A DNA stretch of 64,000 nt, from the NCBI GenBank assembly GCA_965659725.1, contig CBFHXG010000009.1, forward strand, positions 1,391 through 65,390, in the 5' to 3' direction. The DNA is from Phaeocystidibacter sp. (GTDB taxonomy: Bacteria; Bacteroidota; Bacteroidia; Flavobacteriales; Schleiferiaceae). Below, one piece after another: positions 6,871-55,004 of this stretch. The translations under genes and the position numbers were made by a program. Positions within the stretch are counted from its first letter, which is position 1; each line of letters opens with the position of its first letter. The notes under the pieces were generated by a model. That model ran no database searches, was not told the DNA's origin, and saw only the letters and a list, made by a program, of their open reading frames with translations.

Positions 6871-6955
6871 CGGAGCCTCGGGGTCCTGGAGCCTTGGTGC
6901 CTTAGTCTTTTGGCCCAGTGGCCCTCTTGCCCCCCTTGCGCCTTTGCGTGAGGCC

Positions 6956-7733: not shown

Positions 7734-7844
7734 AGCAGTAAATTTTTGATTAATGGAGACTATAACCAATTCATTTGCAACTTGTTTATGTTTCGTGAAT
7801 AAAAAGTTAAACGGGTCGATTTTTCATGCTTGGATTTCCGTTGG

Positions 7845-22176: not shown

Positions 22177-25100
22177 CTAGTGGATTACCGTTACCCAACC
22201 TCTCTTCTCGTATTCAGCCGAGGTGAACACCCAAACATAGGTGTCTTCCTTAACCTTCACTCCATCTCCACGGGTTCCATCCCAGAACTCGTTGAACGGA
22301 TCATGTGAGCTGAATACTAAGTTACCCCAACGATCGAAGATCTGGAATCTCGATGGCCCAATACATTCACTACCTACGATCTTGTACTTCTCATTGATCA
22401 TGTCTTCATTTGGCGTGAAGGCATTCGGAATGTGGAGATACTCTTGATCCTCATCTACACCCACATAAATGTAGAATGTACTGTCGCAACCCAACGCATC
22501 CGCGATGGTCAATTCGTGAGAACCTGGACGAATATCTTCCTTCGTTCCAGAGAACAGTTGTCCGTCAAAGTAGAATGAATACGGCGGAGTTCCACCCGAC
22601 ACATCGAGGTCTACATAACCGTCATTCGAAGTAGGACAAGTAGCAAAATCTACTGTAATTCCCGTTTCGATAGGCTCATTCTCAACAACCTCAACCGTGT
22701 CTTCGATTCTACATCCATTAGCATCTATCACCGTGTATGCATACTTACCTACACCCAGGTTGCCAATGTTCATTCCCGATTGACCGTGGCTCCACGTAAC
22801 CACGTATGGAGGAGTTCCACCAAATGGGTTGATATTCGCGCTTCCGCTATTGGCACCACCACAATTGATCCCGATAACATCTTCAACGGTTCCCAAGTCC
22901 TGATTAGGACCAGTGATGTCTACACTATCCGTCTTGTAACAACCCATGGCATCCGTAACAACTACGCCATATCTACCCACTGGTAGGCCTACTGCAGTAT
23001 CCCCTTGATGACCATTGGACCATACCACGTTGTACGGAGGAGTACCTCCAACAAGGTTGACGTGGGCAATACCATCGGCCTCGCCATAGCACATCACCGG
23101 TGTCAACATATTGGCTGCCGCCGATAGATCACGATTCGGTTCTGTAACGTTTCCACTCACCGTAACGGAACATCCGTTTGCATCGGTAATGGTAACCGTA
23201 TACTGACCAGCTAGCAAGTAGTTAAGTGTGTCGGTGGTAGCTCCGTTTGACCAAGACACTTGATACGGTGGAGTACCGCCCGTGTAATTGGTGTAGACAG
23301 ATCCGTTGGCATCTCCTTTACAGAATACATTCTGAATGATGTTCACGTTGGCTGTGATTGGAGAATTCGGTTCAGTAATAACCACCGTAGTGCTATCCGT
23401 ACATCCGTTGGCATCTGTAACAACGGCTGTATAGGACCCCGTGCTTACCTGACTCAATGTGTCATTGGTAGAGCCGTTCGACCAAGAGACATTGTAAGGT
23501 GCAGTACCTCCATTGATCTGGACATACGCCCATCCATCGTTACCACCGAAGCAAGATACATTCTGGATAAATCCATTGGCTGCATTCAGGGATCCCGAAG
23601 GTTGATTAATGGTTATCGAAATTGAATCGGTACATCCGTTCGCATCCGTAACCGTGGCTACATAGGTTCCCGCAGCAAGATTGCTAGCCGTAGTTCCCGC
23701 TTGTCCATTATTCCAGTTGATGGTGTACGGTGAAGTGCCTCCAGTGACTGAGATCGTAGCAAAACCATCTAGCCCGTTAAAACAGTTCACATGGCCTGTG
23801 GCAGTTGGTGTCACTGCAATTCCAGAAGCTGGTTGAGATACACTCACACTATGAGTTGTGTTACATCCACTGGCATCGGTTACCGTTACCGTATATGTTC
23901 CGGCCGTCACTCCCGCTAGATTAGCTGTAGTTGCACCATTTGACCAAGCATAGGTAAAAGGCGCTGTTCCGCCAGTAACATTAATCATCACTGCACCATC
24001 CGATCCGCCGAAGCAATTCACGTCTGTGATAGAGTTCGTGCTAACGGAGATACCGCTAGTTGGCTGGTTGATCGTTACGCTAGCCGTTGCCGTACACCCA
24101 TTGACATCGGTAATTGTTACCGAGTACGTACCCGCGCTAAGGTTACTGACAGTTGCGGTAGTGGCACCATTCGACCATGCATAGGTGTACGGAGACGTTC
24201 CGCCTCCCGGAGTAGCACTAGCCGATCCAGTAGCACCGCCAAAGCAATTCACATGACTTAGTACACCCGCCGAAGCACTCAGCGCATTCGACGGTCCATT
24301 GATGGTGATCGACCCAGATACCACACATCCGTTAGCATCCGTCACCGTCACTGTGTACGTTCCAGTAGCAAGTCCACTGATGTTGGCAGACGTTGCACCA
24401 TTCGACCAGTTGTAGGTATATGGAGCCGTTCCACCTGATACGTTCGCCGCACCTGCACCGGAATTAGAGCCAAAACATGAAACGTGATTAGAAACCACTG
24501 CATTCAATGTCAAGGCCGAAGCCGGCTGGGTGATTACAACAGACTGACTCGTGGTACATCCGTTGGCATCGGTTATTACAACCGTGTACGTACCTGCGGT
24601 GATGTTAGAGATCGTGTCTGTAGTTTGACCCGAGTTCCAAAGCACGCTATAAGGAGCCGTGCCGCCAGAGTAAGTAACATACGCCTCACCAGTCGCTCCG
24701 CCGAAGCATGTAACTTGACTTACAATAGTGGAGGTGCTCGTCAATGCACTACCAGGTTGATTTAGCGTCACATTTGCTGTAGACGTACATCCGTTGGCGT
24801 CTGTCACAGTTACGGTATACGTACCCGCAGCAACGTTAGAGATGGTTGCACCAGTTGCACCATTACTCCATGCATAGGTATATGGAGCCGTGCCGCCTGA
24901 ACCTCCGGCTGTTGCCGTGCCTGTAGAGGCTCCAAAACAATTGATATCCGTAGAGCTAAGGATCGCAACACTCAAAGCGCTAGCCGGCTGTGTGATCACC
25001 ACTGTGGCGGTATCCGAACAACCGTTAGCATCCGTGATGGTTACGGTATATGAACCTGCCGTCAATCCTGTTTGATTGGCACCAATGGCACCGTTGCTCC

Positions 25101-28100
25101 AAGCATACGTGTAAGGAGATGTTCCGCCACTTCCTGTTGCCGTTGCAGATCCTGTTGATCCACCGAAGCAAGCAACGTTAGCGTTCACCGTTGCTGATAC
25201 GTTCAAGGCTGAACTAGGTTCAGTGATCGTTACTGTTTCCGTTGTGGTACATCCGTTCGCATCCGCGATGGTCACAGTATAGGTGCCCGCGATCAAGTTG
25301 TTGATGGTATCCGTAGTGGCACCACTGCTCCAGCTAACACTGTAAGGTGCTGTTCCGCCTGTGTATGTGATATAGGCTAATCCATTATTTCCACCGAAGC
25401 AGCTCACATTCTGAATCACTGCACTCGTGCTGGTAAGTGCCGCTGATGGTTGAGTGATGTTCACACTCAATGTATCGGTACATCCATTCGCATCCGTTAC
25501 AGTAAGGCTATACGTTCCCGCCACCAAGTTGGTGAGGTTTGCCGTTGATGCGCCATTGCTCCATGCATATGTGTATGGTGCCGTCCCACCCGAAGTATTC
25601 ACTTGGATCGAACCGGTAGAGTTGCCGAAGCAATCTACATTCTGACTAGCGATCAGCGATACGCTCAAGGCAGATGCCGGTTGAGTGATGATCACGCTAT
25701 CCATATCAAAACAACCATTCGCATCGGTGATGGTCACAACATACTGACCGGCAGATAGTGCGTTGATAGTAGGTGTGTTTGCACCGTTGCTCCAAGCAAA
25801 CGTGTAAGGAGATGTTCCGCCTGTAGCTGTAGCTGTTGCCGATCCAGTAGGCACTCCAAAACAACTCACGTTTGAATTGATAGCTGCAGATGCATCCAAA
25901 GCACTCGCTGGTTGAGTGATAACCACTGAATCCGAAGCTGAACAACCATTGGCATCTGTGATAATAACAGAATAGGTGCCCGCTGGGATATTCACGATGG
26001 TATCAGACAACCCACCGTTGCTCCATGCAACTGAATAAGGAGGCGTTCCACCAGTGTAGGATACGTGAGCGTTGGCATCACTTCCACCGTAACAGCTCAC
26101 ATTATTGATCACGTTGGTGTTCAAGCTGATGGCAGTAGCGGGTTGGGTAATGGTTACGGTACTACTATCCGTACAACCATTCGCATCTGTAGCAACCACG
26201 GTGTAGACACCTGCCACTAATCCTGTTGCGGTCGCGGTAGTCTGCCCATCGCTCCATGCATACGTGTATGGTGCCGTACCTCCCGTTGTTGTTGCTGTTG
26301 CCGAGCCATTGCTTCCACCGAAACAACTCACATTCGAGTTCACGATGGCACTCACGTTCAATGCGGTTGCTGGTTGACCGATGTTCACTCCGGCGGTAAC
26401 CTGACATCCATTGCTATCGGTTACAGTAACCACATAGCTTCCGGCTGCAAGCGCACTCACCGTATCGCCGCTCATGCCATTACTCCAACTATAGGTATAT
26501 GGTCCGTCACCTCCAGAGGCAACCGCATACGCTACGCCATCGCTTCTGCCAAAGCAGTTCACGGCACTCAATTGAGCGACGGAAAGCGTAAGTGCAGTTG
26601 CTGGTTGAGTGATGGTAACAGAAATACTATCCTGACAACCATTGTCATCGGTAACGGTAACGGTATAACGTCCGGCAGCTAGACCAGAAGCTAGAGGCAC
26701 AGAAGGACCATGGTCCCAGTCGAAACTGTACGGAGGAGTACCTCCGATAGCAGAGGCTAGGATCGCTCCATCGGCACCTCCTAAACAGCTCACGTTATTG
26801 AGAACATTAATCTGAATGCTAATGGCAGAATCAGGTTGGGTCATGGTTACGTGAGCCGTATCCATACATCCATTTGCATCAACTACAGTAACGATATACA
26901 GTCCTGTATCCAGATTGAATGCCGTGTTACCTGTTTGACCATCGCTCCACGTATAGGTATACGGAGGTGTACCACCTGTGGCAGAAGCTGTCGCATATCC
27001 GTCAGATCCACCAAAACAGTTCACTGGGAAAAGAACGGACGCACTTGCATCTACTGCAGAGGCAGGTTCGCCAATGGTCACATAAGCGGTATCGGAACAA
27101 CCAAGGCTGTCTACCACCGCAACAGAATGCGTACCGGCAGATAAGTTAATGGCGGTAGCTGTTGTTTCACCGTTACTCCACAAATAGGTATATGGCGCAG
27201 TGCCACCTTGGGCAAACACATTAGCTGATCCGTCCGATCCACCGATACAGCTGACCTGACCCAGGAGTGTCATAGTAAGCATGATATCTTGAGGAGGCGA
27301 ACTAATAGTAACGTTAGCAGTAACATCACAACCGAGTGAATCGGTTACGGTAACTGAATAGATTCCAGGCGTAAGTCCAGTAGCTGTATCCGTAGTTTGA
27401 CCATCGCTCCATACATAGGTGAATGGTGGGATGCCGTTCGTTACGGTAACAGTGGCGGTACCATCGGCACCACCGAAACAGCTGGTAGTGGTCAATGCCA
27501 CACCAGAGGCGAAAATATCGCTGGCTGGCTGCGTGATCACGACTGAAACGAGATCTTGACAACCCAATGAATCCGTAACGAGTACAGCGTATGTTCCAGC
27601 GGTAAGACCTATTGCGGTATCGCCGGTTTGACCATCACTCCAAGAGTATGTATACGGAGGTGTACCACCCGTTGCATTCGCCCAAGCAGATCCGTCCGAT
27701 CCACCGAAGCAAGTAATAGTATTCACCACCACTCCACTCACAGAAACGGGAGCTGAAGGCTGTGTGATGCGCACACGAGCCGTATCGCTACAACCATTGG
27801 CGTCTGTTACGGTAACGGTGTACCACTGGGCGCTCAGACCCGTAGCTGTGGCTCCACTCGCACCGGTACTCCATAGATATGTATACGGTGCCGTTCCGCC
27901 TGAGGCGCTAGCTGTAGCTTGACCATCATTTCCACCGAAGCAAGATACACTTGCGATCATCGATGCAGATGCCGTGATGCGCGTGGCCGGTTGAGTAACT
28001 GTAACCGCAGCTGTATCTGTACATCCGTTCGCATCGGTTACAATAACGGTGTGTGTTCCGGCCCAGAATCCTGTAGCGGTACGTGTGGTTTGTCCATTGC

Positions 28101-31100
28101 TCCACAAGTACGTATAAGGCGAGGTACCACCCGATGCCGTGGCACGTGCGGTGGCCGTTGAATCTCCAAAGCACAGAACGTTTGTCAATACTGAAGCTCC
28201 ACCCGAAACTGCTGTGCTTGGCTCATCGATAACAATTTGAGCAGTAGCCGTACATCCATTCGAATCCGTAACGGTAACTGTGTGTGTTCCAGCAGTCAAT
28301 GCGATTGTCGTATCCGTTGTTTCACCATTGCTCCATGAGAAGGTATATGGGGGAGTACCACCAGACCCGCTTGCGACAGCGGAACCGTCAGACCCTCCTA
28401 AACAAGACACATCATTTACAAGAGCCGTGGCCGCGGCCACCGCAGTTGGTTGAGTAATAGTAACACTCTCCGTGATGCTACACCCCATGCTGTCTGTAAT
28501 GGTAACCGTGTATGTGCCGATTGCAATCCCCGTAATCGTGTCATTGGTAGATCCCGTGCTCCATAGGTACGTGTATCCACCCCATCCACCAGTCGCGGTA
28601 ACGTATGCCGTTCCATCGCTGGCACCAAAACATGAGATGGTCATGGCATCGATCGCCGATGCTGAAAGTGGTGCACTCGGACCAGGAATAGTGATGTTCG
28701 CGGCATCCGTACATCCTCTGGCATCCGTTACGGTCACCACGTAGGTTGATTGAGCTAGGCCAAAAGCAGAATCACCGGATTGACCATTGCTCCAAGCATA
28801 GGTATAGGGTGGCGTACCACCCGATCCAGCAACAGTAGCCCAGCCATCTGTACTTCCCACACAAGAAACACCCGTAATCTGAACTGCATTTACGTCTGTA
28901 GCAACCGCTGGCTCAGTGATCACAACAGAGGCTGTATCCTGACAACCCAATGAGTCGGTTACGATAACCGTATGTGCTCCAGCTGGTAAGCCTGTTGCAA
29001 TGGCCGAAGTTTGACCATTACTCCACGAGAAAGTATACGGCGGCGTTCCACCCATTGCACTGGCTGATGCCTCACCATCGGCACCGCCAACGCAAGAAAC
29101 AGAAGTGTCCATTTGAGCACTTGCCGCTACTGCAGTAGCTGGTTCTGTGATGGTAACGGTATCCATAACCTGACACCCGTTGCTGTCTGTCACAGTAACA
29201 TAGTGGTCGCCAGCAGCTAAGCCAGTAGCCGTTGCAGAGGTTTGTCCGTCGGTCCAAGCAAATGTGTAAGGAGGTGTGCCTCCAGATCCACTTACTGATG
29301 CCGAACCATCGGCACCGCCAAAGCAACTTACATTGTTTACTACCGAAGTTGAAGAGGTTACCGGGTCTGGTTCATCAATCGTGATCGAGCTAGTTGAAGA
29401 ACAACCAAGACTATCCACTACATAGACCAAATATTGACCTGCAGGAACTCCAGAAAGTGTGTCTCCCGTATGCCCTGTACTCCAAGAAATAATGTACGGA
29501 GGGTTTCCGCCTGAGGCAACACCGTATAGCACGCCGTCACTTGATCCATTACAAGGGATCTCGCCAATGATCGTTGCAGAAACCGCCAGGTCAACACTTG
29601 GTGGCGGAACGTCAAGGGTGTCAGTAGCCTGACATCCGTTGGAGTCTGTTACTGTCAACACGATCTGTCCACCACCTAATCCGGTTACCGTATCGTTAGC
29701 CGTTCCATTATTCCATGTGTAGGTGTAAGGAGCTGTTCCGCCCGAAGCAGTACCGTAAGCAGATCCATCCAAGAAGCCTCCACAAGTTGGAGCAGAGATC
29801 AAGGTGGCTGTGGCTGAAAGCGCTGAAGCAGGCTGCGTGATGGTTACATGGGCTGAATCTTGACAGCCATTTGCGTCGGTCATGATCACGTAATATCCAC
29901 CAGGCACAAGACCAGTAGCTATCTGTCCAGTTTGACCATCGCTCCACAAGTAGGTATAAGGAGTTACTCCACCTGAGCCGATCGCTTCTGCCGTACCGTC
30001 TGACCCTCCAAAACAGTTCACATCCGTTTTTGATATGATGGCCGCCAAAGGCATGGAAGGTTGAGTAATTGTAGCTGTATCGAACTCCGCACATCCGTTA
30101 GCATCCGTGATTTGAACCCAATAGGTTCCGGTGGCTAGTCCTGAGATGCTTTGAGTAGTTGCACCTGTATTCCATGCGTACGAATAAGGAGGAACTCCTC
30201 CAGTAGGCATTACAGAAGCCGTACCATCGTTCGCTCCAAAACAAGTGACGTTCGTAAAGTTGAGGTTCTCTACAAGTGGATCCGGTTCAGTAACCACAAC
30301 CGTGTTCGTATCGGTACAACCCATAGAGTCAGTTACCGTAACAATATAAGAACCAGCCGTAATGCCAGTTATAGTATCACCGGTCATGCCATTGCTCCAG
30401 CTGAAGGTGTAAGGAGGCGCCCCTCCAGTAGCTGATGCATATGCAATACCATCGCTACCGCCGGCACAGGTTATTGCATTTCCGTCTACAGCACCCACGA
30501 GTAACTCGAATGGGGCCTCGAAAATATTTACTGTGTCAATGTCGGTACAACCATTAGCATCGGTAACGATCAAGATGTAATCACCTCCTGCAAGACCATT
30601 GATATTTGCACCTGTCATGCCATTGCTCCAAGAGTACATGTAAGGCGGAGTACCTCCAGTTGCGGTTGCGGTAGCCGCACCATCTAAATCACCTCTACAA
30701 GTTACGCCCACTGTACTCGAAGTGCCGGCCTGAAGTGCAGCGGCAGGCTGAGTGATGGTAACGTTGATTGAATCTTCACAACCATTTGCGTCGGTGACCA
30801 CCACCGTATGTGTTCCAGCTGTTAAGTCGGTTACTACAGCGGTTGTTTGTCCGGAAGACCATAGATAGGTATAAGGAGAAAACCCTCCGCTTACCGTTAC
30901 AGTTGCTTCACCCGCTGCCTCTCCAAAGCAAAGAACGTTCGAATCCACATTTGCAGATACATTTAATGCGGTTGGCTCAGTAAGCGTGAACACGGCTGTA
31001 TCGATACATCCATTCGCATCAGTCACCGTTGCTGTATACGTTCCAGCAACTAGGTTCTGGATGGTATCCGTAGAAGCGCCATTCGACCAAGAAATGGTGT

Positions 31101-33456
31101 ACGGCGATGTTCCGCCCGTGATATCAACATAACCCGAACCATCCGAATCACCATTACAAAGAATGGCATTGATGATAGAGGCCGCAGCCACGAGTTCAGC
31201 ATTTGGTTCTTCGATAGTAACCGTTGCAGAATCTTCACAACCATTGGCATCGGTGACGATAACGCTATATGTACCACCGCTCAACCCAACGTTCGCTGTA
31301 TCTGTAACTCCATTACTCCATTCAAAATCATAGGGTGGAGTTCCTCCTGTTGCGGCTGCAACTGCTGATCCATCTCCATCTCCAAAGCAGAGAACATCTG
31401 TTGAATCCGTGATGGTCACCACAAGAGGTGTTGCCGGCTCAGTGATCGTTACATTAGCAGAGTCGATACATCCATTCGCATCGGTTACCACGACCGAATA
31501 GGTTCCGGCCGGAACTTGAATCGAATTAGTAGTATCACCTGTGTTCCAAAGAATGGAGTAAGGGACGGTACCACCGGATATCTGAACAGTGGCTACACCA
31601 TCCGCTTCACCAAAACATGAAACGGCTGATGTCATTACTCCAATAGCGGCAAGCGCAGAGTCTGGCTGCGTGATAGTCAATGAAAGTGTATCAGTACAAC
31701 CTACACTGTCAGTTATGATAACGGTGTGGCTTCCAGCAGGAAGACCAATAGCAGTATCGCTGGTTTCTCCATTACTCCAAAGGTAGGTGTACGGTGACGT
31801 TCCACCTGAGCCTACTACCACGCCTACACCATCAGATCCTCCGAAACAGGATACAGGCGCTTCCGCAATGGTCAACCCTCCTACAGGCTGAGCAGGTTCT
31901 GTTATAGTTACTTCCAATGAATCGGCACAACCGTTGGCATCGGTTACAACAACGGAATAGGTTCCCGCAACAAGGTTATTACGAGCACTGTCGGTATTTC
32001 CATCGTTCCAAAGAAGCGAATATGGAGGTATGCCCCCAGTAATGAGTAGATCGACTTGACCCGTACTATCGCCAAAACAGAGGATAGGAACCTGATTGTC
32101 GATCACCACTTCAAGTGGAGATGCTGGTTGAACCAGGTCGATGGTAACTGAATCAGTACAACCATTGGCGTCAACTACGGTGAGGGAGTAACTCCCCGCT
32201 CCCATTCCATTGAGCGTATCGTGTATTGCACCCGTATTCCAAGAGAAGGCATATGGCGGAGTACCCCCAGTGGCAAAGCCAGCGAGCTGTCCGTTAAGAT
32301 CACCGAAACAATCTATACTATCTAATATATCTATGTTGGCTATGAGGGAATCGGGTTCCGTGACCGTCACACTGACAGTATCGGTACAACCACCACCGCT
32401 TGTGATATAGATCTCGTAGGTGCCGGCAGACAAACCATAAACGGTATCGCTTGTGGCGCCATTGGACCATAGATAGGTTGTTGGTGGAGCTCCACCCCAT
32501 ACATCAACCCATGCCCAACCGTCGGTATCACCATGACAACTAACCTGACTTCCTTGCTCGGCGATGGCCCAGCCACAACCGCCCAAAGTGAAAACAGGAG
32601 TACTATCAGTGATAGCGATAAATACACTATCTGGGTCGGTAAAGAGATTGTCATTTACACCACCAATATCGGAAGCAGCCCCACCTAAGGCAGAGCTTGC
32701 AGAAGAAGCAGTGGCAAAGATCATTCGGATAGAATCGTTCGGATTGATACCGAGACTATCGAATGGAACGTAGAAATCGAGGAATACTGGATCGTTCTTC
32801 CAACAGTTGGTGTATCCAGCATGGGATCTTTGAGAGTGGGTCGATCCTGGATAAGTAGATAGTTGCGTACCTGTAGTGGTGCCATCTACGTCCATGATCG
32901 AAACCGATCCTTGGCCCGCGGTACCATAGATGATCTCAAGCTCGAATCCAGGGTTACCTGTTACGGCGTTGGGGTCGGCCGTTGCTCCGGTAAAGCCAAT
33001 ACGGTTATCGGTATCGATCAAAAAACTAAACCCGTATGCGCCCGTTACGTTGCGTGCAATGCGGATCCTATACATAAGGAATTCGTCTCCGTTTCCAGGA
33101 GTTCCATCTTGATCACCTAAATACCAATAACCTGCACTCATTGGGTAGTTAGGATTGTCTACGATCTCGGACTTACCGCAATCGTTACCGGTTAGGAGGT
33201 CGGCAGGGGGTTCGGCAGAAAGGTGGAACATTGGAATCATCGGATACTCAAAGTCGAACGACTCATCGATCACCACGGAGGTATCAATAGCACCTCCAGA
33301 TGCGGATATCCACCCATCACTATTAGGGTCGAGTACCGTACCTGGACTACTTTGGTAGATACTACCGATCTGCTGACTCCATCCAAAGAATGAAATTAGG
33401 AGAAGAGTAATAAGCCACACGCGCCGTTTGCAGGGAAGCGAGTAGAGGCTTGCCAT
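22177..33456 (-). CDS. Giant T9SS type B (CHU_C) adhesin with about 44 SprB-type repeats
   Basis: About 76-aa repeats V.C.GG.DG...GGT.PY.Y.WS.G...VTD.NGC (44 counted by eye); C-terminal IPNAFTPN.D..N; probable start MASLY at 33456. Confidence 0.9.
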   Translation of the reverse strand: MASLYSLPCKRRVWLITLLLISFFGWSQQIGSIYQSSPGTVLDPNSDGWISASGGAIDTSVVIDESFDFEYPMIPMFHLSAEPPADLLTGNDCGKSEIVDNPNYPMSAGYWYLGDQDGTPGNGDEFLMYRIRIARNVTGAYGFSFLIDTDNRIGFTGATADPNAVTGNPGFELEIIYGTAGQGSVSIMDVDGTTTGTQLSTYPGSTHSQRSHAGYTNCWKNDPVFLDFYVPFDSLGINPNDSIRMIFATASSASSALGGAASDIGGVNDNLFTDPDSVFIAITDSTPVFTLGGCGWAIAEQGSQVSCHGDTDGWAWVDVWGGAPPTTYLWSNGATSDTVYGLSAGTYEIYITSGGGCTDTVSVTVTEPDSLIANIDILDSIDCFGDLNGQLAGFATGGTPPYAFSWNTGAIHDTLNGMGAGSYSLTVVDANGCTDSVTIDLVQPASPLEVVIDNQVPILCFGDSTGQVDLLITGGIPPYSLLWNDGNTDSARNNLVAGTYSVVVTDANGCADSLEVTITEPAQPVGGLTIAEAPVSCFGGSDGVGVVVGSGGTSPYTYLWSNGETSDTAIGLPAGSHTVIITDSVGCTDTLSLTITQPDSALAAIGVMTSAVSCFGEADGVATVQISGGTVPYSILWNTGDTTNSIQVPAGTYSVVVTDANGCIDSANVTITEPATPLVVTITDSTDVLCFGDGDGSAVAAATGGTPPYDFEWSNGVTDTANVGLSGGTYSVIVTDANGCEDSATVTIEEPNAELVAAASIINAILCNGDSDGSGYVDITGGTSPYTISWSNGASTDTIQNLVAGTYTATVTDANGCIDTAVFTLTEPTALNVSANVDSNVLCFGEAAGEATVTVSGGFSPYTYLWSSGQTTAVVTDLTAGTHTVVVTDANGCEDSINVTITQPAAALQAGTSSTVGVTCRGDLDGAATATATGGTPPYMYSWSNGMTGANINGLAGGDYILIVTDANGCTDIDTVNIFEAPFELLVGAVDGNAITCAGGSDGIAYASATGGAPPYTFSWSNGMTGDTITGITAGSYIVTVTDSMGCTDTNTVVVTEPDPLVENLNFTNVTCFGANDGTASVMPTGGVPPYSYAWNTGATTQSISGLATGTYWVQITDANGCAEFDTATITQPSMPLAAIISKTDVNCFGGSDGTAEAIGSGGVTPYTYLWSDGQTGQIATGLVPGGYYVIMTDANGCQDSAHVTITQPASALSATATLISAPTCGGFLDGSAYGTASGGTAPYTYTWNNGTANDTVTGLGGGQIVLTVTDSNGCQATDTLDVPPPSVDLAVSATIIGEIPCNGSSDGVLYGVASGGNPPYIISWSTGHTGDTLSGVPAGQYLVYVVDSLGCSSTSSITIDEPDPVTSSTSVVNNVSCFGGADGSASVSGSGGTPPYTFAWTDGQTSATATGLAAGDHYVTVTDSNGCQVMDTVTITEPATAVAASAQMDTSVSCVGGADGEASASAMGGTPPYTFSWSNGQTSAIATGLPAGAHTVIVTDSLGCQDTASVVITEPAVATDVNAVQITGVSCVGSTDGWATVAGSGGTPPYTYAWSNGQSGDSAFGLAQSTYVVTVTDARGCTDAANITIPGPSAPLSASAIDAMTISCFGASDGTAYVTATGGWGGYTYLWSTGSTNDTITGIAIGTYTVTITDSMGCSITESVTITQPTAVAAATALVNDVSCLGGSDGSAVASGSGGTPPYTFSWSNGETTDTTIALTAGTHTVTVTDSNGCTATAQIVIDEPSTAVSGGASVLTNVLCFGDSTATARATASGGTSPYTYLWSNGQTTRTATGFWAGTHTVIVTDANGCTDTAAVTVTQPATRITASASMIASVSCFGGNDGQATASASGGTAPYTYLWSTGASGATATGLSAQWYTVTVTDANGCSDTARVRITQPSAPVSVSGVVVNTITCFGGSDGSAWANATGGTPPYTYSWSDGQTGDTAIGLTAGTYAVLVTDSLGCQDLVSVVITQPASDIFASGVALTTTSCFGGADGTATVTVTNGIPPFTYVWSDGQTTDTATGLTPGIYSVTVTDSLGCDVTANVTISSPPQDIMLTMTLLGQVSCIGGSDGSANVFAQGGTAPYTYLWSNGETTATAINLSAGTHSVAVVDSLGCSDTAYVTIGEPASAVDASASVLFPVNCFGGSDGYATASATGGTPPYTYTWSDGQTGNTAFNLDTGLYIVTVVDANGCMDTAHVTMTQPDSAISIQINVLNNVSCLGGADGAILASAIGGTPPYSFDWDHGPSVPLASGLAAGRYTVTVTDDNGCQDSISVTITQPATALTLSVAQLSAVNCFGRSDGVAYAVASGGDGPYTYSWSNGMSGDTVSALAAGSYVVTVTDSNGCQVTAGVNIGQPATALNVSAIVNSNVSCFGGSNGSATATTTGGTAPYTYAWSDGQTTATATGLVAGVYTVVATDANGCTDSSTVTITQPATAISLNTNVINNVSCYGGSDANAHVSYTGGTPPYSVAWSNGGLSDTIVNIPAGTYSVIITDANGCSASDSVVITQPASALDASAAINSNVSCFGVPTGSATATATGGTSPYTFAWSNGANTPTINALSAGQYVVTITDANGCFDMDSVIITQPASALSVSLIASQNVDCFGNSTGSIQVNTSGGTAPYTYAWSNGASTANLTNLVAGTYSLTVTDANGCTDTLSVNITQPSAALTSTSAVIQNVSCFGGNNGLAYITYTGGTAPYSVSWSSGATTDTINNLIAGTYTVTIADANGCTTTETVTITEPSSALNVSATVNANVACFGGSTGSATATGSGGTSPYTYAWSNGAIGANQTGLTAGSYTVTITDANGCSDTATVVITQPASALSVAILSSTDINCFGASTGTATAGGSGGTAPYTYAWSNGATGATISNVAAGTYTVTVTDANGCTSTANVTLNQPGSALTSTSTIVSQVTCFGGATGEAYVTYSGGTAPYSVLWNSGQTTDTISNITAGTYTVVITDANGCTTSQSVVITQPASALTLNAVVSNHVSCFGSNSGAGAANVSGGTAPYTYNWSNGATSANISGLATGTYTVTVTDANGCVVSGSITINGPSNALSASAGVLSHVNCFGGATGSASATPGGGTSPYTYAWSNGATTATVSNLSAGTYSVTITDVNGCTATASVTINQPTSGISVSTNSITDVNCFGGSDGAVMINVTGGTAPFTYAWSNGATTANLAGVTAGTYTVTVTDASGCNTTHSVSVSQPASGIAVTPTATGHVNCFNGLDGFATISVTGGTSPYTINWNNGQAGTTASNLAAGTYVATVTDANGCTDSISITINQPSGSLNAANGFIQNVSCFGGNDGWAYVQINGGTAPYNVSWSNGSTNDTLSQVSTGSYTAVVTDANGCTDSTTVVITEPNSPITANVNIIQNVFCKGDANGSVYTNYTGGTPPYQVSWSNGATTDTLNYLLAGQYTVTITDANGCSVTVSGNVTEPNRDLSAAANMLTPVMCYGEADGIAHVNLVGGTPPYNVVWSNGHQGDTAVGLPVGRYGVVVTDAMGCYKTDSVDITGPNQDLGTVEDVIGINCGGANSGSANINPFGGTPPYVVTWSHGQSGMNIGNLGVGKYAYTVIDANGCRIEDTVEVVENEPIETGITVDFATCPTSNDGYVDLDVSGGTPPYSFYFDGQLFSGTKEDIRPGSHELTIADALGCDSTFYIYVGVDEDQEYLHIPNAFTPNEDMINEKYKIVGSECIGPSRFQIFDRWGNLVFSSHDPFNEFWDGTRGDGVKVKEDTYVWVFTSAEYEKRGWVTVIH

Positions 33457-33640
33457 AGTTACTTGTTTTTGGTCTCTATATTTTTTTATCGCCCTTCGCA
33501 TAAGTTTACTTCAGGACAACTAGTCAAAGCTACACCACTCTAAATCACGAAGTTGTACACCCTTTCCGACATTCTATTCTGACTATTAAAGTAGAATTCG
33601 AGGCCAGTTGCTTAATTTACTGCATACTAACTACGAGTCA

Positions 33641-37011: not shown

Positions 37012-37377
37012 TCAATCCCCTTTCAACCTATCCAGATCCCTTCTTTCACGCTTGGTGGGTCTACCCGTTCCTCTATCCCGTTGAAGGTTCTTCGCCAACC
37101 TCAAAAATTCTTGCTTATCCGCCTCTTCCTGAGGCGTGGTTTCTTTAATTAGATCGGGAACTAACTTGGCACCTACCCTCGACTTTGGGATGCTGATGAC
37201 CTTGAAACTTCTGGAAAAGCCGTGGAATTTGACAGTGAACTCATCGCCGCTTTTCAACTCCCGAGATGCCTTTACAGGAATATCATCGATCAACACACGT
37301 TCTTTTCGCACCTCATTGGCTGCCAAAGATCGCGTCTTAAAGATCCGTACACACCACAAGAATTTATCGACCCGCAT
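37012..37377 (-). CDS. hslR: Heat shock protein 15 (S4 RNA-binding domain)
   Basis: MRVDKFLW..R.FKTRSLA and GRPTKRERR motifs. Confidence 0.92.
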   Translation of the reverse strand: MRVDKFLWCVRIFKTRSLAANEVRKERVLIDDIPVKASRELKSGDEFTVKFHGFSRSFKVISIPKSRVGAKLVPDLIKETTPQEEADKQEFLRLAKNLQRDRGTGRPTKRERRDLDRLKGD

Positions 37378-38020
37378 CCTCAATGATCTCCTTTAGCAAT
37401 TCCGGCTCAACGCTGTGTCCACCGTGATATCGGTGCAGAGTTGGCCGTATGTCGAATTCAGCAAGTTGACCTAACACTTCTTGTACCTTGTCTTCTGGAG
37501 CGTACTCATCCGCGTCTCCAAAAACGGCATCGAATTGAACCGAATCGAAGGCTGATTTCTTCACCGCATAATCAATATCGGGAGGAAACGAGCCTGCCCA
37601 GCAAATAAGGTGGTCGATGCCCTTTCCGTCTCTGTGATCCATCCATCGGCAGGCGGTTGAAACGCCCTGGGAGAAGCCAACGAGAGTAACATGCTCAATG
37701 TTCGGGGAGTTATTTCGCTCAAGTTCCAATACAGTATCAAGATGTTTCGCTTGGTCCCGTATATCATCCAATCTGGCCTCCTTGGTCATCCAAGATGCAC
37801 CCACTCTACCGCTTGTTCCTTCAAGATAAAATCTGTGAAGTCCCTCTGGCGCAACAACTCTTCTTTCAGCATTCTCCAAGTGCGCAAACTTTCTCAGAAA
37901 GTAAGAAGGAAGCTGTCCGTATCCGTGTAAAGCAATAATCAATCTCTTGACCCGTAGTCCAGGTTCTCCCAGTGAGAATAGTCTTGCAGTTTTCTCTACT
38001 ATGATCTTTTGTTCGTTCAA
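37364..38020 (-). CDS. Alpha/beta hydrolase (phospholipase/carboxylesterase-like)
   Basis: LHGYG, GFSQG nucleophile elbow, D and GGH triad residues. Confidence 0.88.
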   Translation of the reverse strand: MNEQKIIVEKTARLFSLGEPGLRVKRLIIALHGYGQLPSYFLRKFAHLENAERRVVAPEGLHRFYLEGTSGRVGASWMTKEARLDDIRDQAKHLDTVLELERNNSPNIEHVTLVGFSQGVSTACRWMDHRDGKGIDHLICWAGSFPPDIDYAVKKSAFDSVQFDAVFGDADEYAPEDKVQEVLGQLAEFDIRPTLHRYHGGHSVEPELLKEIIEDAGR

Positions 38021-38031
38021 GTGAAGGGAGT

Positions 38032-38589
38032 TAGAGTGTTAGGGTGTTAGGGTGTTAGGGTGTTAGGGTGTTAAAGTTACTTGAGATTCGACAACCTCAA
38101 ATCTCAATTCTTCACCTTGTGGGTTTTAAACCCAAGTATTATGTCATTATTTGCAAAAACCATAGAAGAGTTGCATTGTTGGCAAGCGGCTCGCAACCTG
38201 GTGGTAATGGTAGATGACCTTATCAGAATGAACCCCGCTCTCAGCAAAAATTATAACCTTAAAGATCAACTCTTTCGTGCGAGTTTAAGTGTTATGAACA
38301 ACATAGCTGAGGGTTTTGGTAGATACCACAAGAAAGAGTTCATGCGATTCCTGGACATTGCCAAAGCGAGCTGCGTAGAGGTTGAAAGTATGTCTTACGT
38401 ACTGGCAGACCTGAAGCTTATTGAAGCTTCTGAAAGTGTTGAGCTCAAGAAGCAAATCACTATTACAAAACGTAAAACTGCAGGGCTGCTAGCTCATCTT
38501 TACAGGACCAATGAAAGCCAACAGACTGCCAAAACCGCAGAGTGATAGGTTAAACACTAACTCTAACACCTTAACACTCTAACACTCTA
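38032..38589. mobile_element. Putative IVS-like cassette: four-helix-bundle gene between 30-bp inverted octamer arrays
   Basis: 38032-38061 complementary to 38560-38589 (27 Watson-Crick + 3 G-U); lies antisense inside a minus-strand operon. Confidence 0.6.
38141..38545 (+). CDS. Four helix bundle protein (23S rRNA IVS protein / TIGR02436-like, Avd-related)
   Basis: EL.CWQ.A, QL.RAS.S...NIAEG.GR...KEF..FL.IA..S..E motifs; start MSLF. Confidence 0.92.
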   Translation: MSLFAKTIEELHCWQAARNLVVMVDDLIRMNPALSKNYNLKDQLFRASLSVMNNIAEGFGRYHKKEFMRFLDIAKASCVEVESMSYVLADLKLIEASESVELKKQITITKRKTAGLLAHLYRTNESQQTAKTAE

Positions 38590-39360
38590 TCCAAACTCCG
38601 GCTTCCTCTTCTCCAAAAAGGCCGCCGTCCCTTCCTTGAATTCATCGGTACCAAAAGCTTCGCCAAAGGCGTTGATCTCCGCCTCAAATCCATTCTCACC
38701 GTGAGCAAAACCAGCATTCACAGCCTTCATTGCTGCGCCAATAGCAACACCGCTGTTCTTAGCTATTTTGGAAGCGATCTCAGTACACTTCTCCATGAGT
38801 TCGTCCATGGACACCACGTGGTTAACCAAACCCCATTTGAGGCCTTCATTCGCATCGATCATGCCTGCGGTAGTGATCATTTCCATGGCCTTGCCCTTGC
38901 CTACCAGCTGAGCAAGTCGCTGTGTGCCTCCATAACCCGGAATAACTCCTAAGGTCACTTCGGGAAGTCCCATTCTCGCATTGTCCGATGCCACACGTAT
39001 ATGGCAGCTCATAGCGAGTTCTAGTCCGCCGCCCAACGCAAAGCCATTGACTGCAGCGATCACGGGCTTGCTGAGGTTCTCGATCAAGTTGAAGAGCGTT
39101 TCGTGTCCCTTTCTGGCCAGTTGCTTTCCTTCCTCAACCGAGTAGTTGGCAAACTCCTTGATGTCTGCTCCCGCAACAAACGACTTTTCTCCAGAGCCTG
39201 TCAAGATGATAGCGCGAACATCGGAAGCTGCTTCGAGTTCCTGCATAGTCTTGCTCAAGGCTGCAATGGTGTCGCCATTCAATGCATTGAGCTGCTTAGG
39301 TCTGTTTATAGTTACCGTGGCAATTCGGTCTTTCTTCTCAATAAGAACGAGTTCTTCCAT
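38587..39360 (-). CDS. Enoyl-CoA hydratase/isomerase (crotonase)
   Basis: AGADI, ALGGGLELA..C, PEVTLG..PG.GGTQ. Confidence 0.93.
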   Translation of the reverse strand: MEELVLIEKKDRIATVTINRPKQLNALNGDTIAALSKTMQELEAASDVRAIILTGSGEKSFVAGADIKEFANYSVEEGKQLARKGHETLFNLIENLSKPVIAAVNGFALGGGLELAMSCHIRVASDNARMGLPEVTLGVIPGYGGTQRLAQLVGKGKAMEMITTAGMIDANEGLKWGLVNHVVSMDELMEKCTEIASKIAKNSGVAIGAAMKAVNAGFAHGENGFEAEINAFGEAFGTDEFKEGTAAFLEKRKPEFG

Positions 39361-50753: not shown

Positions 50754-51608
50754 ATGAATAAGGAAGAGAAGAAAAAAGCACGAATTGAGAAACTCAGGAA
50801 CAAGTACCGACTTGTGATCTTGAATGACGACACTTTTGAGGAAAAGGTGTCGTTCAAACTCAGCAGGCTCAATGTGGTTCTTCTCGGTATTCTCAGTGCT
50901 TTTGTGCTCATTGCGCTTACCACCTTGTTGATCGCCTATACTCCGCTGAGAGAGTACATTCCAGGTTACGCCAGCACGAAGCTCAAGAAACAAGCCATTG
51001 AATTGGCCTCTGCTAAGGACTCCCTCGAGAACGTCGTGGCAAGACAGGGTCTATATGTAGATAACATCCGGAGGATACTCAGTGGCGACACCCTTCAAGA
51101 GGAGTTAGTTGCCGATACGAACGTTACGGTGAGCGACCGTGCCCTTGAGGGAGATATTTCCGAAGCCGACTCCTCCTTGCGGGCTTTTGCGGATGATGAA
51201 GATAATTTCAACCTCCCCACCGGTTCAGATGATATCTCCAACTTCACCTTCTTTGCTCCGGTAAAGGGATTGATCAGTGGAGAGTATGATCCTAGGGTAA
51301 ATCATCAAGCTGTGGACGTGGTTGCGCCAAAGAACACTCCAATAAAGGCTTGCCTTGAAGGAGTCGTTTTGTTTGCGGGGTGGACCGTCGAAACGGGACA
51401 TGTGATGATCGTTCAGCATACCGACAATTTGATATCGGTCTACAAACACAATTCTGCGCTTCTGAAATCACAAGGTGATATTGTGCAGGCGGGTGAGGCT
51501 ATCGCTATCATCGGCAATTCAGGCGAACAGAGCACGGGTCCGCACTTGCACTTCGAATTGTGGCACAATGGTATTCCGGTAGATCCCACCAACTACATTT
51601 CCTTCTAG
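50754..51608 (+). CDS. M23 family metallopeptidase
   Basis: H.AVD, YKHN, STGPHLHFE. Confidence 0.93.
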   Translation: MNKEEKKKARIEKLRNKYRLVILNDDTFEEKVSFKLSRLNVVLLGILSAFVLIALTTLLIAYTPLREYIPGYASTKLKKQAIELASAKDSLENVVARQGLYVDNIRRILSGDTLQEELVADTNVTVSDRALEGDISEADSSLRAFADDEDNFNLPTGSDDISNFTFFAPVKGLISGEYDPRVNHQAVDVVAPKNTPIKACLEGVVLFAGWTVETGHVMIVQHTDNLISVYKHNSALLKSQGDIVQAGEAIAIIGNSGEQSTGPHLHFELWHNGIPVDPTNYISF

Positions 51609-52075
51609 AACAAGCCTTGCTCTTGATCTTCAAACCCTTGATCGACGGCATTGGCATCGTTGGTTGCGGCGTTGAACGCTAGGCGATCACATCGCTCGTT
51701 CATGGGATGGTCGTTATGGCCTTTTACCCACTGGAAGCGCACATTTTGCTGACGCAATAGGGGAAGGAGCCGTTTCCAGAGATCCGGATTCTTCACTTTG
51801 GTCCATCCTCTTCTCTGCCAGTTGGTGATCCAGCCCTTGGAAATCGCATCAACTACATACTTCGAGTCGGATACCACTAAAACATCCATTCCGGTCCGCT
51901 TCAGGGCTTCGAGCGCAACGATCACGGCTAGTAACTCCATACGATTGTTGGTGGTTCGGCGGAATCCTTTGGCCAACTCCTTCTTGCGTTGGCCTGAAAC
52001 GAGCACTATTCCGTATCCTCCTGGCCCCGGGTTACCTCGAGACGATCCGTCGGTGTAGATCTGTACATCACTCAT
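51605..52075 (-). CDS. rnhA: Ribonuclease HI
   Basis: YTDGS..GNPG, TTNNRMEL, WVKGH, NERCD. Confidence 0.97.
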   Translation of the reverse strand: MSDVQIYTDGSSRGNPGPGGYGIVLVSGQRKKELAKGFRRTTNNRMELLAVIVALEALKRTGMDVLVVSDSKYVVDAISKGWITNWQRRGWTKVKNPDLWKRLLPLLRQQNVRFQWVKGHNDHPMNERCDRLAFNAATNDANAVDQGFEDQEQGLF

Positions 52076-52996: not shown

Positions 52997-54250
52997 ATGG
53001 AACTGAAACGAGTTGTCGTTACAGGGATCGGTGCGTTAACACCGATCGGTAATACCGCTAGTGAATTTTGGAAGAATCTTGTGGCTGGAACGCCTGGTGC
53101 GGCTCCCATCACATTGTTCGATGCCGAAAAGTTCAAGACTCGTTTCGCCTGTGAAGTCAAGAATTTCGATGAACGAGATTACATCGACCGCAAGGAAGCG
53201 CGGAAGATGGATCGATTTTCTCATTTTGGGCTGGTAGTCGCCGACGAGGCGATTGCCGATGCCCGACTTGAGGAAAGTGATGTAGACAAAGACCGTGTGG
53301 GTGTGATATGGGGATCGGGAATTGGAGGTTTAGACACCTTCCTGACCGAGTCCATCAATTACGCCCAGGGCGATGGTACACCGCGATTCAATCCGTTCTT
53401 CATTCCAAAAATGATCGCCGATATCACAGGTGGACATATTTCGATGAAGTACAATTACCGCGGACCGAATTTCACCACCGTTTCAGCATGTGCTTCAGCA
53501 ACCAACGCGTTGATCGACGCCTACACATACATTCGTCTAGGAAAGGCGGATGTAATTGTAGCTGGTGGCTCTGAAGCAGCCGTTACAAAAGCGGGTATTG
53601 GTGGATTCAATGCCATGCACGCCCTCTCCACTCGCAACGACGACCCTGCTACTGCGTCCCGTCCTTTCGACAAGGACCGCGATGGGTTCGTAATGGGCGA
53701 AGGTGGAGCGGCGATCATCCTTGAAGAGTACGAACACGCTGTGAAGCGCGGTGCAACCATCTATGCAGAGTTTGCCGGTGGCGGACTTTCTGCTGATGCA
53801 CACCATCTCACCGCCCCTCATCCTGAAGGTCTTGGTGCCATTAACGTAATGCGCAACGCCCTTGATGATGCGGGAATGAAGGCCGATGAACTCGATTATA
53901 TCAACGTTCACGGAACCTCTACTCCTCTTGGCGACATCGCTGAAACTAAGGCCATCAAAGAGGTCTTCGGTGCTCATGCCTACAACCTGAACATCAGTTC
54001 TACCAAGTCTATGACCGGTCACCTACTGGGTGCCGCAGGAGCCGTTGAAGCCATTGCTTCGATACTATCCGTTCGCGATGGTGTAGTGCCTCCTACGATC
54101 AATCACTTTACAGATGATCCGGAACTAGATAATAAGTTGAACTTCACTTTTGGAAAGGCTCAGAAGAAAGAAGTTCGCGCCGCATTGAGCAACACGTTTG
54201 GTTTTGGGGGACACAACGCATCCGTTATCTTCAAGAAAGCAGAAGGCTAG
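52997..54250 (+). CDS. fabF: Beta-ketoacyl-ACP synthase II
   Basis: SACAS, HGTST, GHLLGAAG, NTFGFGGHN. Confidence 0.97.
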   Translation: MELKRVVVTGIGALTPIGNTASEFWKNLVAGTPGAAPITLFDAEKFKTRFACEVKNFDERDYIDRKEARKMDRFSHFGLVVADEAIADARLEESDVDKDRVGVIWGSGIGGLDTFLTESINYAQGDGTPRFNPFFIPKMIADITGGHISMKYNYRGPNFTTVSACASATNALIDAYTYIRLGKADVIVAGGSEAAVTKAGIGGFNAMHALSTRNDDPATASRPFDKDRDGFVMGEGGAAIILEEYEHAVKRGATIYAEFAGGGLSADAHHLTAPHPEGLGAINVMRNALDDAGMKADELDYINVHGTSTPLGDIAETKAIKEVFGAHAYNLNISSTKSMTGHLLGAAGAVEAIASILSVRDGVVPPTINHFTDDPELDNKLNFTFGKAQKKEVRAALSNTFGFGGHNASVIFKKAEG

Positions 54251-55004
54251 GCCTCAGTCTAACGGTATTTGGAGGCGCATTAAGCGGCTAACCTCTCGCA
54301 AACATCGCCACAAGAAAGGCGAGTTCTATCATCGCATTGCACAACTTATTGGGATCGAACCAAGAGATTTAGCTCTATACGAACTTGCCGTTCGTCATAG
54401 CTCTGCCTCCAAACGTTCTACATCTTCTGAATGGTCGAACAACGAACGCCTTGAATTCCTTGGCGATGCCATACTTGGCGCTGTTGTGGCGAAAGAGCTC
54501 TATCATCAGTACCCCGACAAGAACGAAGGGTTTCTCACCAGTATGAGAGCCAAGATGGTGTCGCGGAAAAACTTGAACAAGCTCGCATCCGAACTCGATC
54601 TATCTCCACTCGTTGTGAGCAAGCTCGACAGTAAAAAGCCGGCTCGATCACTGTTGGGAGACGTACTTGAAGCCCTGATCGGTGCGATCTATCTCGATCA
54701 CGGTCTCCACGCCGCCGAACGATTCATACGATCTAAGATCATCATGGATCACAACGCATTCGAAGAACTGGAGAATCAAGTGGTAAGTTTCAAAAGCACC
54801 TTCATCGAATACGTTCAAGGAGAAAGACTTAACCACTTCTTTAAATTGGAAGACAGGTGGGGTAAGAACCATAGCCTTACCTTTAAGGTGGGATTGTATC
54901 TCGACGATAAGAGAATAGCCGAAGGGATAGGGACAAGTAAGAAAAGAGCCGAAGAAAAAGCTGCAGAACAAGCCTGTAACGAATTGGGAGTAATCAAAGA
55001 ATGA
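54198..55004 (+). CDS. rnc: Ribonuclease III (start uncertain)
   Basis: NERLEFLGDAILG, DVLEALIGA, C-terminal dsRBD. Confidence 0.93.
   Translation: MVLGDTTHPLSSRKQKARPQSNGIWRRIKRLTSRKHRHKKGEFYHRIAQLIGIEPRDLALYELAVRHSSASKRSTSSEWSNNERLEFLGDAILGAVVAKELYHQYPDKNEGFLTSMRAKMVSRKNLNKLASELDLSPLVVSKLDSKKPARSLLGDVLEALIGAIYLDHGLHAAERFIRSKIIMDHNAFEELENQVVSFKSTFIEYVQGERLNHFFKLEDRWGKNHSLTFKVGLYLDDKRIAEGIGTSKKRAEEKAAEQACNELGVIKE

Follow-up and report, generated by a model that had tools for sequence, protein, structure and literature searches.

On balance, we favor the view that a four-helix-bundle (4HB) gene in a 64,000-nucleotide stretch of Phaeocystidibacter sp. DNA (assembly GCA_965659725.1, contig CBFHXG010000009.1, positions 1,391 to 65,390; hereafter the window) is the core of a selfish cassette of the intervening-sequence (IVS) type, in which an RNA stem around the gene would serve as a substrate for RNase III. 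Unlike the known rRNA IVSs, the cassette (38032-38589) resides in an mRNA operon, between a crotonase gene and an esterase gene. The 4HB gene is enclosed by two inverted arrays of octamers, the same site is empty in related genomes, and homologous genes elsewhere are enclosed by arrays built on the same plan. An element of this kind had been proposed in an earlier note made from the letters of the window and the translations of its open reading frames (ORFs).

The two arrays flank the 4HB gene in opposite orientation. Tandem Repeats Finder (TRF) places the left, or 5', array at 38025-38073 on the plus strand, with a period of 8, 6.1 copies, 92% matches and a score of 84 (consensus AGGGTGTT, TTAGRGTG). 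The right, or 3', array (38558-38589, plus strand) holds about four inverted octamers of the form CTAACACY, and TRF reports the part at 38563-38589 (period 8, 3.4 copies, CTAACACC). Written as repeats, the cassette's own, or cognate, units are (UUAGGGUG)n and (TTAGGGTG)n. An inverted-repeat search pairs 38032-38061 with 38560-38589 over 30 nt, with 27 of the 30 positions Watson-Crick (90% complementary), so that both TRF and this search bear out the 30-bp helix of inverted octamer arrays that the earlier note had described. Because both arms are tandem, the stem can pair in several registers; an alternative one joins 38048-38079 to 38558-38589 over 32 nt at 88%. The inverted repeat scores 45, compared to a maximum of 23 among 30 shuffles, and the unit dimer GTGTTAGGGTGTTAG is found at 8 places in the window when up to 3 mismatches are allowed, versus 0.94 expected, with 7 of the 8 occurrences inside the two arrays. 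Thus, neither the stem nor the arrays can be attributed to chance. No further copies of the arrays or of the 4HB gene are found elsewhere in the 64 kb.

At each of the three mismatches in the stem, the left arm has a G where the reverse-complemented right arm has an A. As the earlier note had read them, all three are G-U pairs in plus-strand RNA and A-C mismatches in minus-strand RNA. For the arm duplex, the predicted energy is -55.6 kcal/mol in plus-strand RNA versus -44.8 kcal/mol in minus-strand RNA. When the 586-nt region is folded whole, the arms are predicted to pair on both strands, with z-scores relative to shuffled sequences of -6.5 (plus) and -4.5 (minus). The left array and the ATG are separated by an inner spacer (38074-38140, plus strand) that contains two small hairpins (38081-38107 and 38120-38134) and a terminator-like match, and the segment 38062-38140, which comprises this spacer and the last array units, has a folding z-score of -3.3 in the window. 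With a median z-score of -0.26 across the family, a structured inner spacer is not a general trait.

The outer ends of the arms coincide closely with the ends of the neighboring genes. Upstream in the operon is a gene for enoyl-CoA hydratase (crotonase; 38587-39360, minus strand; ECH_1, E = 5.7e-68), and its TAG stop codon at 38587-38589 (CTA on the plus strand) forms the outermost 3 nt of the right arm. The downstream gene encodes a carboxylesterase/serine hydrolase (37364-38020, minus strand; Abhydrolase_2, FSH1). Its TTG start codon at 38020, which aligns with the GTG at 4001 of the nearest related locus (L005, described below), lies 11 nt from the left arm. Both of these boundaries had been given correctly in the earlier note. 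The 4HB gene itself (38141-38545, plus strand, 134 amino acids) is antisense to the co-oriented crotonase and esterase genes. Its ORF starts at the ATG at 38141, not at the TTG at 38081, and it is intact with all family-invariant residues present.

The protein is a member of PF05635 (23S_rRNA_IVP) and TIGR02436 ("four helix bundle protein") by every feature that can be tested. It matches PF05635 with an E-value of 1.9e-27 (96 bits; cut-off 33.8) and TIGR02436 with 91.8 bits (cut-off 24). The AlphaFold2 model (pLDDT 94.6) predicts four long helices in an up-down bundle. In Foldseek, the top matches are XCC0516 (2GSC, TM 0.88) and BT_0352 (2RLD, TM 0.9), followed by Avd of the Bordetella phage diversity-generating retroelement, or DGR (8UB7/4DWL; probability 1.00, TM 0.79-0.84 normalised to target). 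The protein thus belongs to the rRNA-IVS family and is related to Avd, as the earlier note had held. Four positions in helix 2, R46, S50, N53/N54 and E57, are invariant in a 38-sequence alignment that includes the window protein, and a conserved R..S...N..E motif has been quoted for the family (PMC3936711). Both 2GSC and 2RLD were crystallized with five chains each, and XCC0516 is described as a homopentamer in published papers. The family comprises 33,913 clusters at 50% identity (profile search, E <= 1e-3), and the closest homologues of the window protein are only about 50% identical to it. No relatives were found in IMG/VR viral contigs, and there was no PHROG match. By analogy to Avd, the protein would most likely bind the cassette RNA or the arrays.

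To find relatives of the locus, the esterase protein was scanned against one genome per species. In the nearest relative, the metagenome-assembled genome (MAG) Flavobacteriia bacterium HF-Dia32 (L005), the esterase is 77%, the crotonase 87% and the next gene (S4-like) 79% identical. The gene order, SIMPL-crotonase-esterase-S4, is the same as in the window except that the 4HB gene is absent, and only a 20-nt spacer (ttcattcagactcccacgtt) separates the crotonase TAA from the esterase GTG. In five more distant Flavobacteriales (L022, L030, L036, L038 and L046; Owenweeksia and Schleiferiaceae MAGs), the crotonase gene is also followed directly by the esterase gene. By parsimony, these six empty sites indicate that the cassette is an insertion in the lineage of the window, in agreement with the claim that it interrupts an operon. 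From the sequences, the insert is estimated at about 556-559 bp (38031 to 38586/38589) within a spacer of about 20 nt. It lies between the crotonase stop codon and a "ctccc" that the filled and empty alleles have in common immediately before the esterase start. The junction was read directly; a global alignment of the filled and empty alleles scattered the short spacer. The empty allele, at about 80% identity, is too diverged to place the junctions to the base or to assert a target-site duplication, while in the window each outer end has a readable TA dinucleotide (38032-33 and 38588-89).

The cassette is present in all six near-identical metagenomic contigs of the organism, and its arrays differ in copy number. 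The left array holds four GTGTTAGGG units in the window, three in L165-L167 and one in L001, while the right array has one extra unit in L166 and L167. The left-array differences could partly reflect k-mer collapse in short Logan contigs. The right-arm variants are real, because their sequences differ. At a second locus, P0007 (L168-L175), 5-7 ACAYAAGC units lie downstream of the gene, depending on the sample. At a third, P0055 (L176-L185), the next gene is called 110 or 137 nt from the 4HB stop codon; the 150 nt downstream that were compared do not differ between samples, and this spacing difference is probably a matter of the start-codon call.

In order to define the architecture of the family, we fetched 80 metagenomic loci with the family alignment and analyzed 120-160 nt on each side of the ORF; 79 of these loci were testable. 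The first homologous locus looked at (L004) lies between CoA-transferase subunit genes and has GTGTT-type octamers, with a 26-nt inverted repeat that spans from the upstream TGA to the downstream ATG. Inverted flanks beat all shuffles at 51 of the 79 loci, or at 55 with wider flanks, and the median arm is 31 nt long. TRF detects arrays in 64 of 82 upstream and 62 of 82 downstream flanks (about 78%) versus 18 of 113 control windows (16%) from the same loci. These arrays have periods of 7 (29 arrays), 8 (40) or 9 (15), or doubles thereof. The units vary by locus (AAAGTCG, GGTCTAAA, GTAGAAAG, AAGTTTGTA, AGATTACA, CGTCAGAA and GTGCCAAA among them), and the plan remains constant. The paired inverted short-tandem arrays expected around homologues by the earlier note are therefore present. 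That note had also named two outcomes that would speak against it, a gene fixed at this locus across the family and paralogues devoid of arrays; we looked for both, and neither is what we found.

The arms share a common composition and polarity. G exceeds C in the 5' arm at 48 of 55 loci (p = 1e-8), and the overall composition of this arm is 33% A, 29% G, 27% T and 12% C. Because the repeat is inverted, the polarity of a G-rich 5' arm holds on both strands. The commonest 4-mers in the arms are AAAG, AAGT and AGGT, which yield a recurrent RRGT core, and the arrays consist of 3-7 units. Across the family, mismatches in the arms are G-U in sense RNA in 87 cases versus 53 in antisense RNA (p = 0.005), and by locus the numbers are 29 versus 12 (p = 0.012). 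This modest signal suggests a sense-strand RNA constraint on the arms, and the strand-biased G-U pairing predicted for the paralogues is in this modest form a family-wide trait. Among 20 related loci without close ORF neighbors, Rfam gave no rRNA match, which indicates that those relatives are not rRNA IVSs. A scan of the whole window at the Rfam gathering threshold likewise gave no match, rRNA included.

The relationship between arrays and ORFs was analyzed in 1,460 pairs of loci whose outer flanks show no detectable homology. The sharing of arm 6-mers correlates with protein identity (Spearman 0.32; reached in 0 of 300 permutations). The shared fraction is 0.03 at 35-45% protein identity, 0.11 at 55-70% and 0.31 above 70%. 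As an individual case, the window and L085 have 54% protein identity and 80% of their arm 6-mers in common, in different contexts. Because the similarity of arm units tracks that of the proteins across contexts, the ORF and its arrays have been passed on and relocated as one unit. At L085, a second G-rich array lies directly after the 4HB stop codon (2320-2480). Judging from its sequence, the downstream C-rich array of L085 could form a local hairpin with this second G-rich array or else pair with the upstream array and so enclose the ORF, which makes a switch between alternative structures possible.

Cassettes of this family occupy a characteristic position between genes. Measured against the stop codon of the neighboring gene, the outer edge of an arm is found at -25 to +20 nt in 36 of 48 cases (median 3.5 nt); where the adjacent gene reads away, the median distance to its first possible start codon is 19 nt. 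The flanking genes are co-oriented with each other at 38 of 53 loci, and at these loci the 4HB gene reads with its neighbors (sense) in 33 cases and against them (antisense) in 5. The antisense placement claimed in the earlier note is thus correct for the window and does not hold as the typical state. A second example of the rarer antisense state is L190, a 1.57-Mb contig with two 4HB genes 7 kb apart (2503-2898 and 10001-10381), the first of which occupies, in antisense, the gap from the imuB stop to the dnaE2 start, and its GTGCAAT heptamer arrays directly abut both. The two genes of a host pair often encode subunits or pathway partners. Among the pairs found are CoA-transferase A|B, GMC oxidoreductase with gluconate-dehydrogenase subunit 3, PAPS reductase with its downstream gene, accB|accC of X. 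campestris, and imuB|dnaE2. The accB|accC case (L186 2930-3372, Xanthomonas campestris GCA_035012225) is a gene of the XCC0516 type, whose crystal structure (PDB 2GSC) defines the family. Its GGGAATC arrays form a 30-nt inverted repeat of 87% that begins 6 nt past the accB TGA and ends at the accC ATG. In published work, a PF05635 gene in cmr3|cmr2 of Pleurocapsa was interpreted as CRISPR-associated (PMC3936711), and a 4HB gene in gmk|nadD of Flavobacterium columnare was listed as a phage element (PMC5524665).

The closest known counterparts of the cassette are the rRNA IVSs of Leptospira, Coxiella burnetii, Brucella and Candidate Phyla Radiation (CPR) bacteria, which occur in 23S (helices 9, 25 or 45) or 16S rRNA genes. 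By definition, an rRNA IVS is cut from its primary transcript by RNase III, and the ends are not religated. They share with it the protein family, a stem of about 28-30 bp around the ORF, units of 7-8 nt upstream of the ORF in strain-variable number, a sporadic distribution and the lack of a recombinase of their own. In the 23S rRNA IVS of Coxiella, the S23p (PF05635) ORF lies in a 28-bp terminal stem, 3-4 tandem GACAGAT heptamers precede the ORF in strain-variable number, and RNase III cuts were mapped by rapid amplification of cDNA ends (RACE) to the first repeat (Warrier et al. 2016, PMC4990558). In CPR bacteria, 23S_rRNA_IVP ORFs occur in insertions in both 16S and 23S rRNA genes (10.1101/2024.02.27.582315). 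The window cassette has the complementary termini of an rRNA IVS, with 27 Watson-Crick and 3 G-U pairs, and its sporadic distribution, with the same site empty in L005 and the five other Flavobacteriales. It differs in location, because it sits between the crotonase and esterase genes and not in an rRNA helix, in being antisense within a protein-coding operon spacer, and in that excision by RNase III has been demonstrated only for the rRNA elements. Thus, the build is that of an rRNA IVS outside an rRNA gene, and the operon spacer is apparently the commoner habitat.

Other systems resemble the cassette in part. The Avd proteins of DGRs (4DWL, 8UB7) share the four-helix-bundle fold with the window protein at only about 10% sequence identity, and unlike a DGR the cassette has no adjacent reverse transcriptase (RT) and no template or variable repeats. 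No Avd gene is known to lie within inverted tandem arrays. A search of 33 of the window's larger ORFs, the three at this locus among them, revealed no transposase, RT or integrase, consistent with the claim that the element has no transposase or RT of its own; long direct repeats are also absent near the 4HB gene. The Correia, or nemis, elements of Neisseria, which belong to the MITEs (miniature transposable elements with inverted repeats), and the REP/RAYT system are short inverted-repeat elements that lie between genes and are transcribed together with operons. RNase III acts on Correia hairpins, and the repeats that RAYT mobilizes flank its gene as inverted copies. These elements have termini of fixed sequence, many near-identical copies and, in RAYT, an HUH transposase, whereas the cassette has lineage-specific tandem arms and no known catalytic fold. 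We rejected a REP/RAYT element (REPIN), since the enclosed gene encodes a four-helix bundle without an HUH domain. An integron gene cassette was also rejected, since symmetric arrays lie on both sides instead of a single 3' attC and no integrase is found among the 33 ORFs.

Tandem repeats of similar size have been described without reference to a gene. In X. campestris, 186 GGGAATC arrays were reported, about 70 of them in convergent inverted pairs, mostly between co-oriented genes near the upstream stop codon; they were discussed as G-quadruplexes, and no enclosed gene was mentioned (Rehm et al. 2015, PMC4692102). These arrays and the cyanobacterial/Nostoc STRR repeats (GGGGAYT) resemble the cassette in having units of 7-9 nt, convergent pairs, an intergenic location near the upstream stop and a variable length. 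They differ from it in that its unit is an octamer with G-runs in one arm only and in that most of the heptamer arrays were reported with no mention of an enclosed ORF. The 23S_rRNA_IVP genes in cas operons resemble the cassette as PF05635 genes wedged between two operon genes and differ in having been interpreted as CRISPR-associated in function (Zhang & Ye 2013, PMC3936711). We found no description in the open-access literature of inverted tandem arrays as a general trait of non-rRNA PF05635 genes, although an earlier description elsewhere is possible. The earlier note's suggestion of an undescribed system therefore stands in part: the rRNA version with tandem heptamers and the inverted arrays of Xanthomonas are published, whereas we found no description of the link between them or of the general non-rRNA cassette.

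How such a cassette could persist in an operon can be outlined from its structure. In RNA of either strand, the G/U-rich 5' array would pair with the C/A-rich 3' array to form a stem of about 30 bp, with its base at the crotonase stop codon on one side and 11 nt away from the esterase start on the other. This stem would loop the insert out and make the host stop and start codons adjacent again, a "structural bypass" that could render the insertion tolerable and the coupled genes less harmed. Host RNase III would cut the stem and release the cassette RNA from the polycistronic transcript, as in the rRNA-borne members. Since the arms are tandem, slippage by whole units would alter their length without loss of pairing, which would explain both the rapid change in copy number and the lineage-specific units. 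The ORF and its arrays would be inherited and relocated together. More speculatively, transcription of the G-rich arm first may keep a C-rich, G-poor stretch, which would attract Rho, from being exposed ahead of its pairing partner. The host RNase III gene, rnc (54198-55004, plus strand; Ribonuclease_3 and dsrm), lies 16 kb from the cassette and is not part of it. Its product is a candidate trans-acting nuclease for the stem and would make the excision suggested in the earlier note feasible. An RNase H gene (51605-52075, minus strand) lies 13 kb from the cassette.

Several observations weigh against an IVS-type cassette that works and moves in this way. Approximately 30% of the homologous loci lack a significant inverted repeat. 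Mismatches in the arms comprise 154 transversions versus 140 transitions, so pairing is far from perfectly kept, and the G-U bias could also be produced by strand-biased deamination linked to transcription. The second 4HB gene of L190 is 28% identical, carries the degenerate motif ISRIADG and, on visual inspection of its flanks, has no arrays; it may be an old or domesticated copy. With regard to a role for the protein, the Coxiella IVS protein appears not to be made (PMC4990558). In the window, neither a sigma-70-like nor a Bacteroidetes TAnnTTTG promoter was found upstream of the ORF or on the minus strand inside the cassette, and the antisense 4HB copy, without a recognizable promoter motif, may be poorly expressed. 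Signs of recent movement are also missing. No consistent target-site duplication occurs across the window, L004, L085 and L186, and exact look-ups of the esterase, crotonase and 4HB proteins gave only cassette-bearing contigs and hence no empty allele within the population. Moreover, identical 4HB proteins (P0007, 11 contigs; P0055, 14 contigs) are always at one locus each, with no case of recent transposition. The spread in trans that the earlier note had considered thus finds no support in these results.

Some of the same observations bear on mobility at the level of DNA. The arrays could be the terminal inverted repeats (TIRs) or the binding sites of a transposase encoded elsewhere, which would make the cassette a MITE-like passenger transposon and the RNA stem a by-product. 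The inverted termini, the presence or absence of the cassette between species, the related cassettes in unrelated loci and the possible TA at both outer ends are what such an element would show. Its arms, however, would be expected to resemble the fixed TIRs of one transposase family, whereas those of the cassettes are unconserved from one to another, tandem and variable in copy number. Together with the lack of a consistent target-site duplication, of identical copies at several loci and of a transposase among the 33 ORFs, and with the sense G-U bias and the strong sense orientation in operons, which are unexpected for an element acting purely as DNA, this makes a DNA-level explanation unlikely. 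A MITE or TIR transposon with fixed, shared termini was rejected: the arm units differ by locus, the 64 kb hold no other copy and identical proteins stay at a single locus. Mobility through RNA has been considered as well. Here, the Avd-like protein would recruit an RT encoded elsewhere, RNase III-trimmed RNA would be copied into new sites, and the units would arise by RT slippage or telomerase-like copying. Avd, the structural relative of the protein, is an obligatory RT cofactor. At 48 of 55 loci, the G-rich strand runs 5' to 3' into the element from both flanks, a polarity that 3'-end extension at a break might give, and the sense-strand bias fits as well. Given that no RT is found among the 33 ORFs or in the gene lists of related loci, that viral-contig relatives and recent copies are absent and that the argument rests wholly on analogy, we consider a retro-mobile cassette very unlikely.

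Two further explanations do without a selfish element. As a domesticated regulatory module of the host, the pentamer would bind the tandem units, in RNA or DNA, with one unit per subunit, and so regulate itself and the flanking operon. The five chains of both solved members, the place of Avd in a DGR ribonucleoprotein, the arrays of 3-7 units with their RRGT core and the co-variation of unit type with protein are consistent with this idea, as are the 186 GGGAATC arrays genome-wide in Xanthomonas (PMC4692102). Extra arrays of a cassette's own unit also occur nearby in 8 of 60 loci, versus 8 of 300 for foreign units. Against these stand a unit number that varies between strains and is not fixed near five, a co-variation equally well explained by common descent, flanking operons that are functionally unrelated, a nearest relative that does without the cassette and, in Coxiella, a protein that seems unexpressed (PMC4990558). 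A regulatory module of this kind is thus unlikely. Still less probable, to the point that we give it very little credence, is a G-quadruplex or simple-sequence-repeat contingency locus, in which the G-rich array would act as a quadruplex or slippage switch for its neighbors and the ORF would be incidental. A role of this sort has been proposed for the GGGAATC repeats of Xanthomonas and the GGGGAYT repeats of Nostoc. The left array does contain, at 38042-38068, a canonical G-quadruplex motif, (G3N1-7)x4, and neither strand of the 64 kb has another; copy number is strain-variable, and the published arrays include the approximately 70 convergent inverted pairs (Rehm et al. 2015, PMC4692102). Most arrays of the family, among them AAAGTCG, GTAGAAAG, AAGTTTGTA and AGATTACA, nevertheless have no G-runs, nor does the right arm in the window, and as a general explanation the G-quadruplex was rejected on this ground. 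The conserved trait, inverted pairing around one gene family, is left unexplained by such a switch.

A broader proposal can also be made, which we offer tentatively and regard as rather doubtful. The 4HB cassettes might be a distinct and very widespread class of recombinase-free mobile elements, in which an Avd-like pentamer recognizes its own lineage-specific 7-9-nt tandem units and the paired arrays define the element as an RNA. This proposal would explain rRNA IVSs, the heptamer arrays of Xanthomonas and cyanobacteria, and the 4HB genes in operons, including those in cas operons. "Four helix bundle protein" is among the commonest uninformative annotations in Bacteroidota, Cyanobacteria, Xanthomonadales, Planctomycetota and CPR bacteria, and the origin and mobility of bacterial rRNA IVSs have been unexplained since about 1990. 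If an ORF with inverted arrays is one and the same element in rRNA helices and operon spacers, the IVS problem would become testable in ordinary operons and with reporters. The PF05635 genes taken as CRISPR-associated, the GGGAATC arrays taken as G-quadruplexes and the 4HB genes listed as phage elements could then be reinterpreted. A module of about 0.5 kb that inserts between coupled genes while looping itself out could be useful for operon engineering, and the kinship with Avd would lead one to ask whether such cassettes supplied DGRs with their cofactor or whether the transfer went the other way.

Other repeats and one exceptionally long ORF were noted in the window. Downstream of a proteorhodopsin gene (7005-7769, minus strand) is a repeat-rich intergenic stretch (6579-6940). 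It contains an octamer array of the CGTTTATC type (6583-6634, 6.5 copies), which occurs again at 6788-6807, and two copies of a 36-nt repeat, CAAACCTAACTCGCC[T/A]TTCGATCAACGAG[C/T]GAGCCC, at 6663-6698 and 6835-6870, the latter followed by a run of GGAGCCTN-like octamers at about 6871-6935. The arrays in this stretch are direct rather than inverted, and there is no 4HB ORF in it. Additionally, a 37-nt GC-rich inverted repeat (13752-13788 and 13898-13934; 89% complementary, 109-nt loop) without tandem units lies in the convergent intergenic gap that follows a Peptidase_M50 gene, a short way beyond a terminator-like hairpin, and might represent a MITE or a small structured RNA. Lastly, a giant ORF of 3,774 amino acids extends over 22177-33501 on the minus strand.

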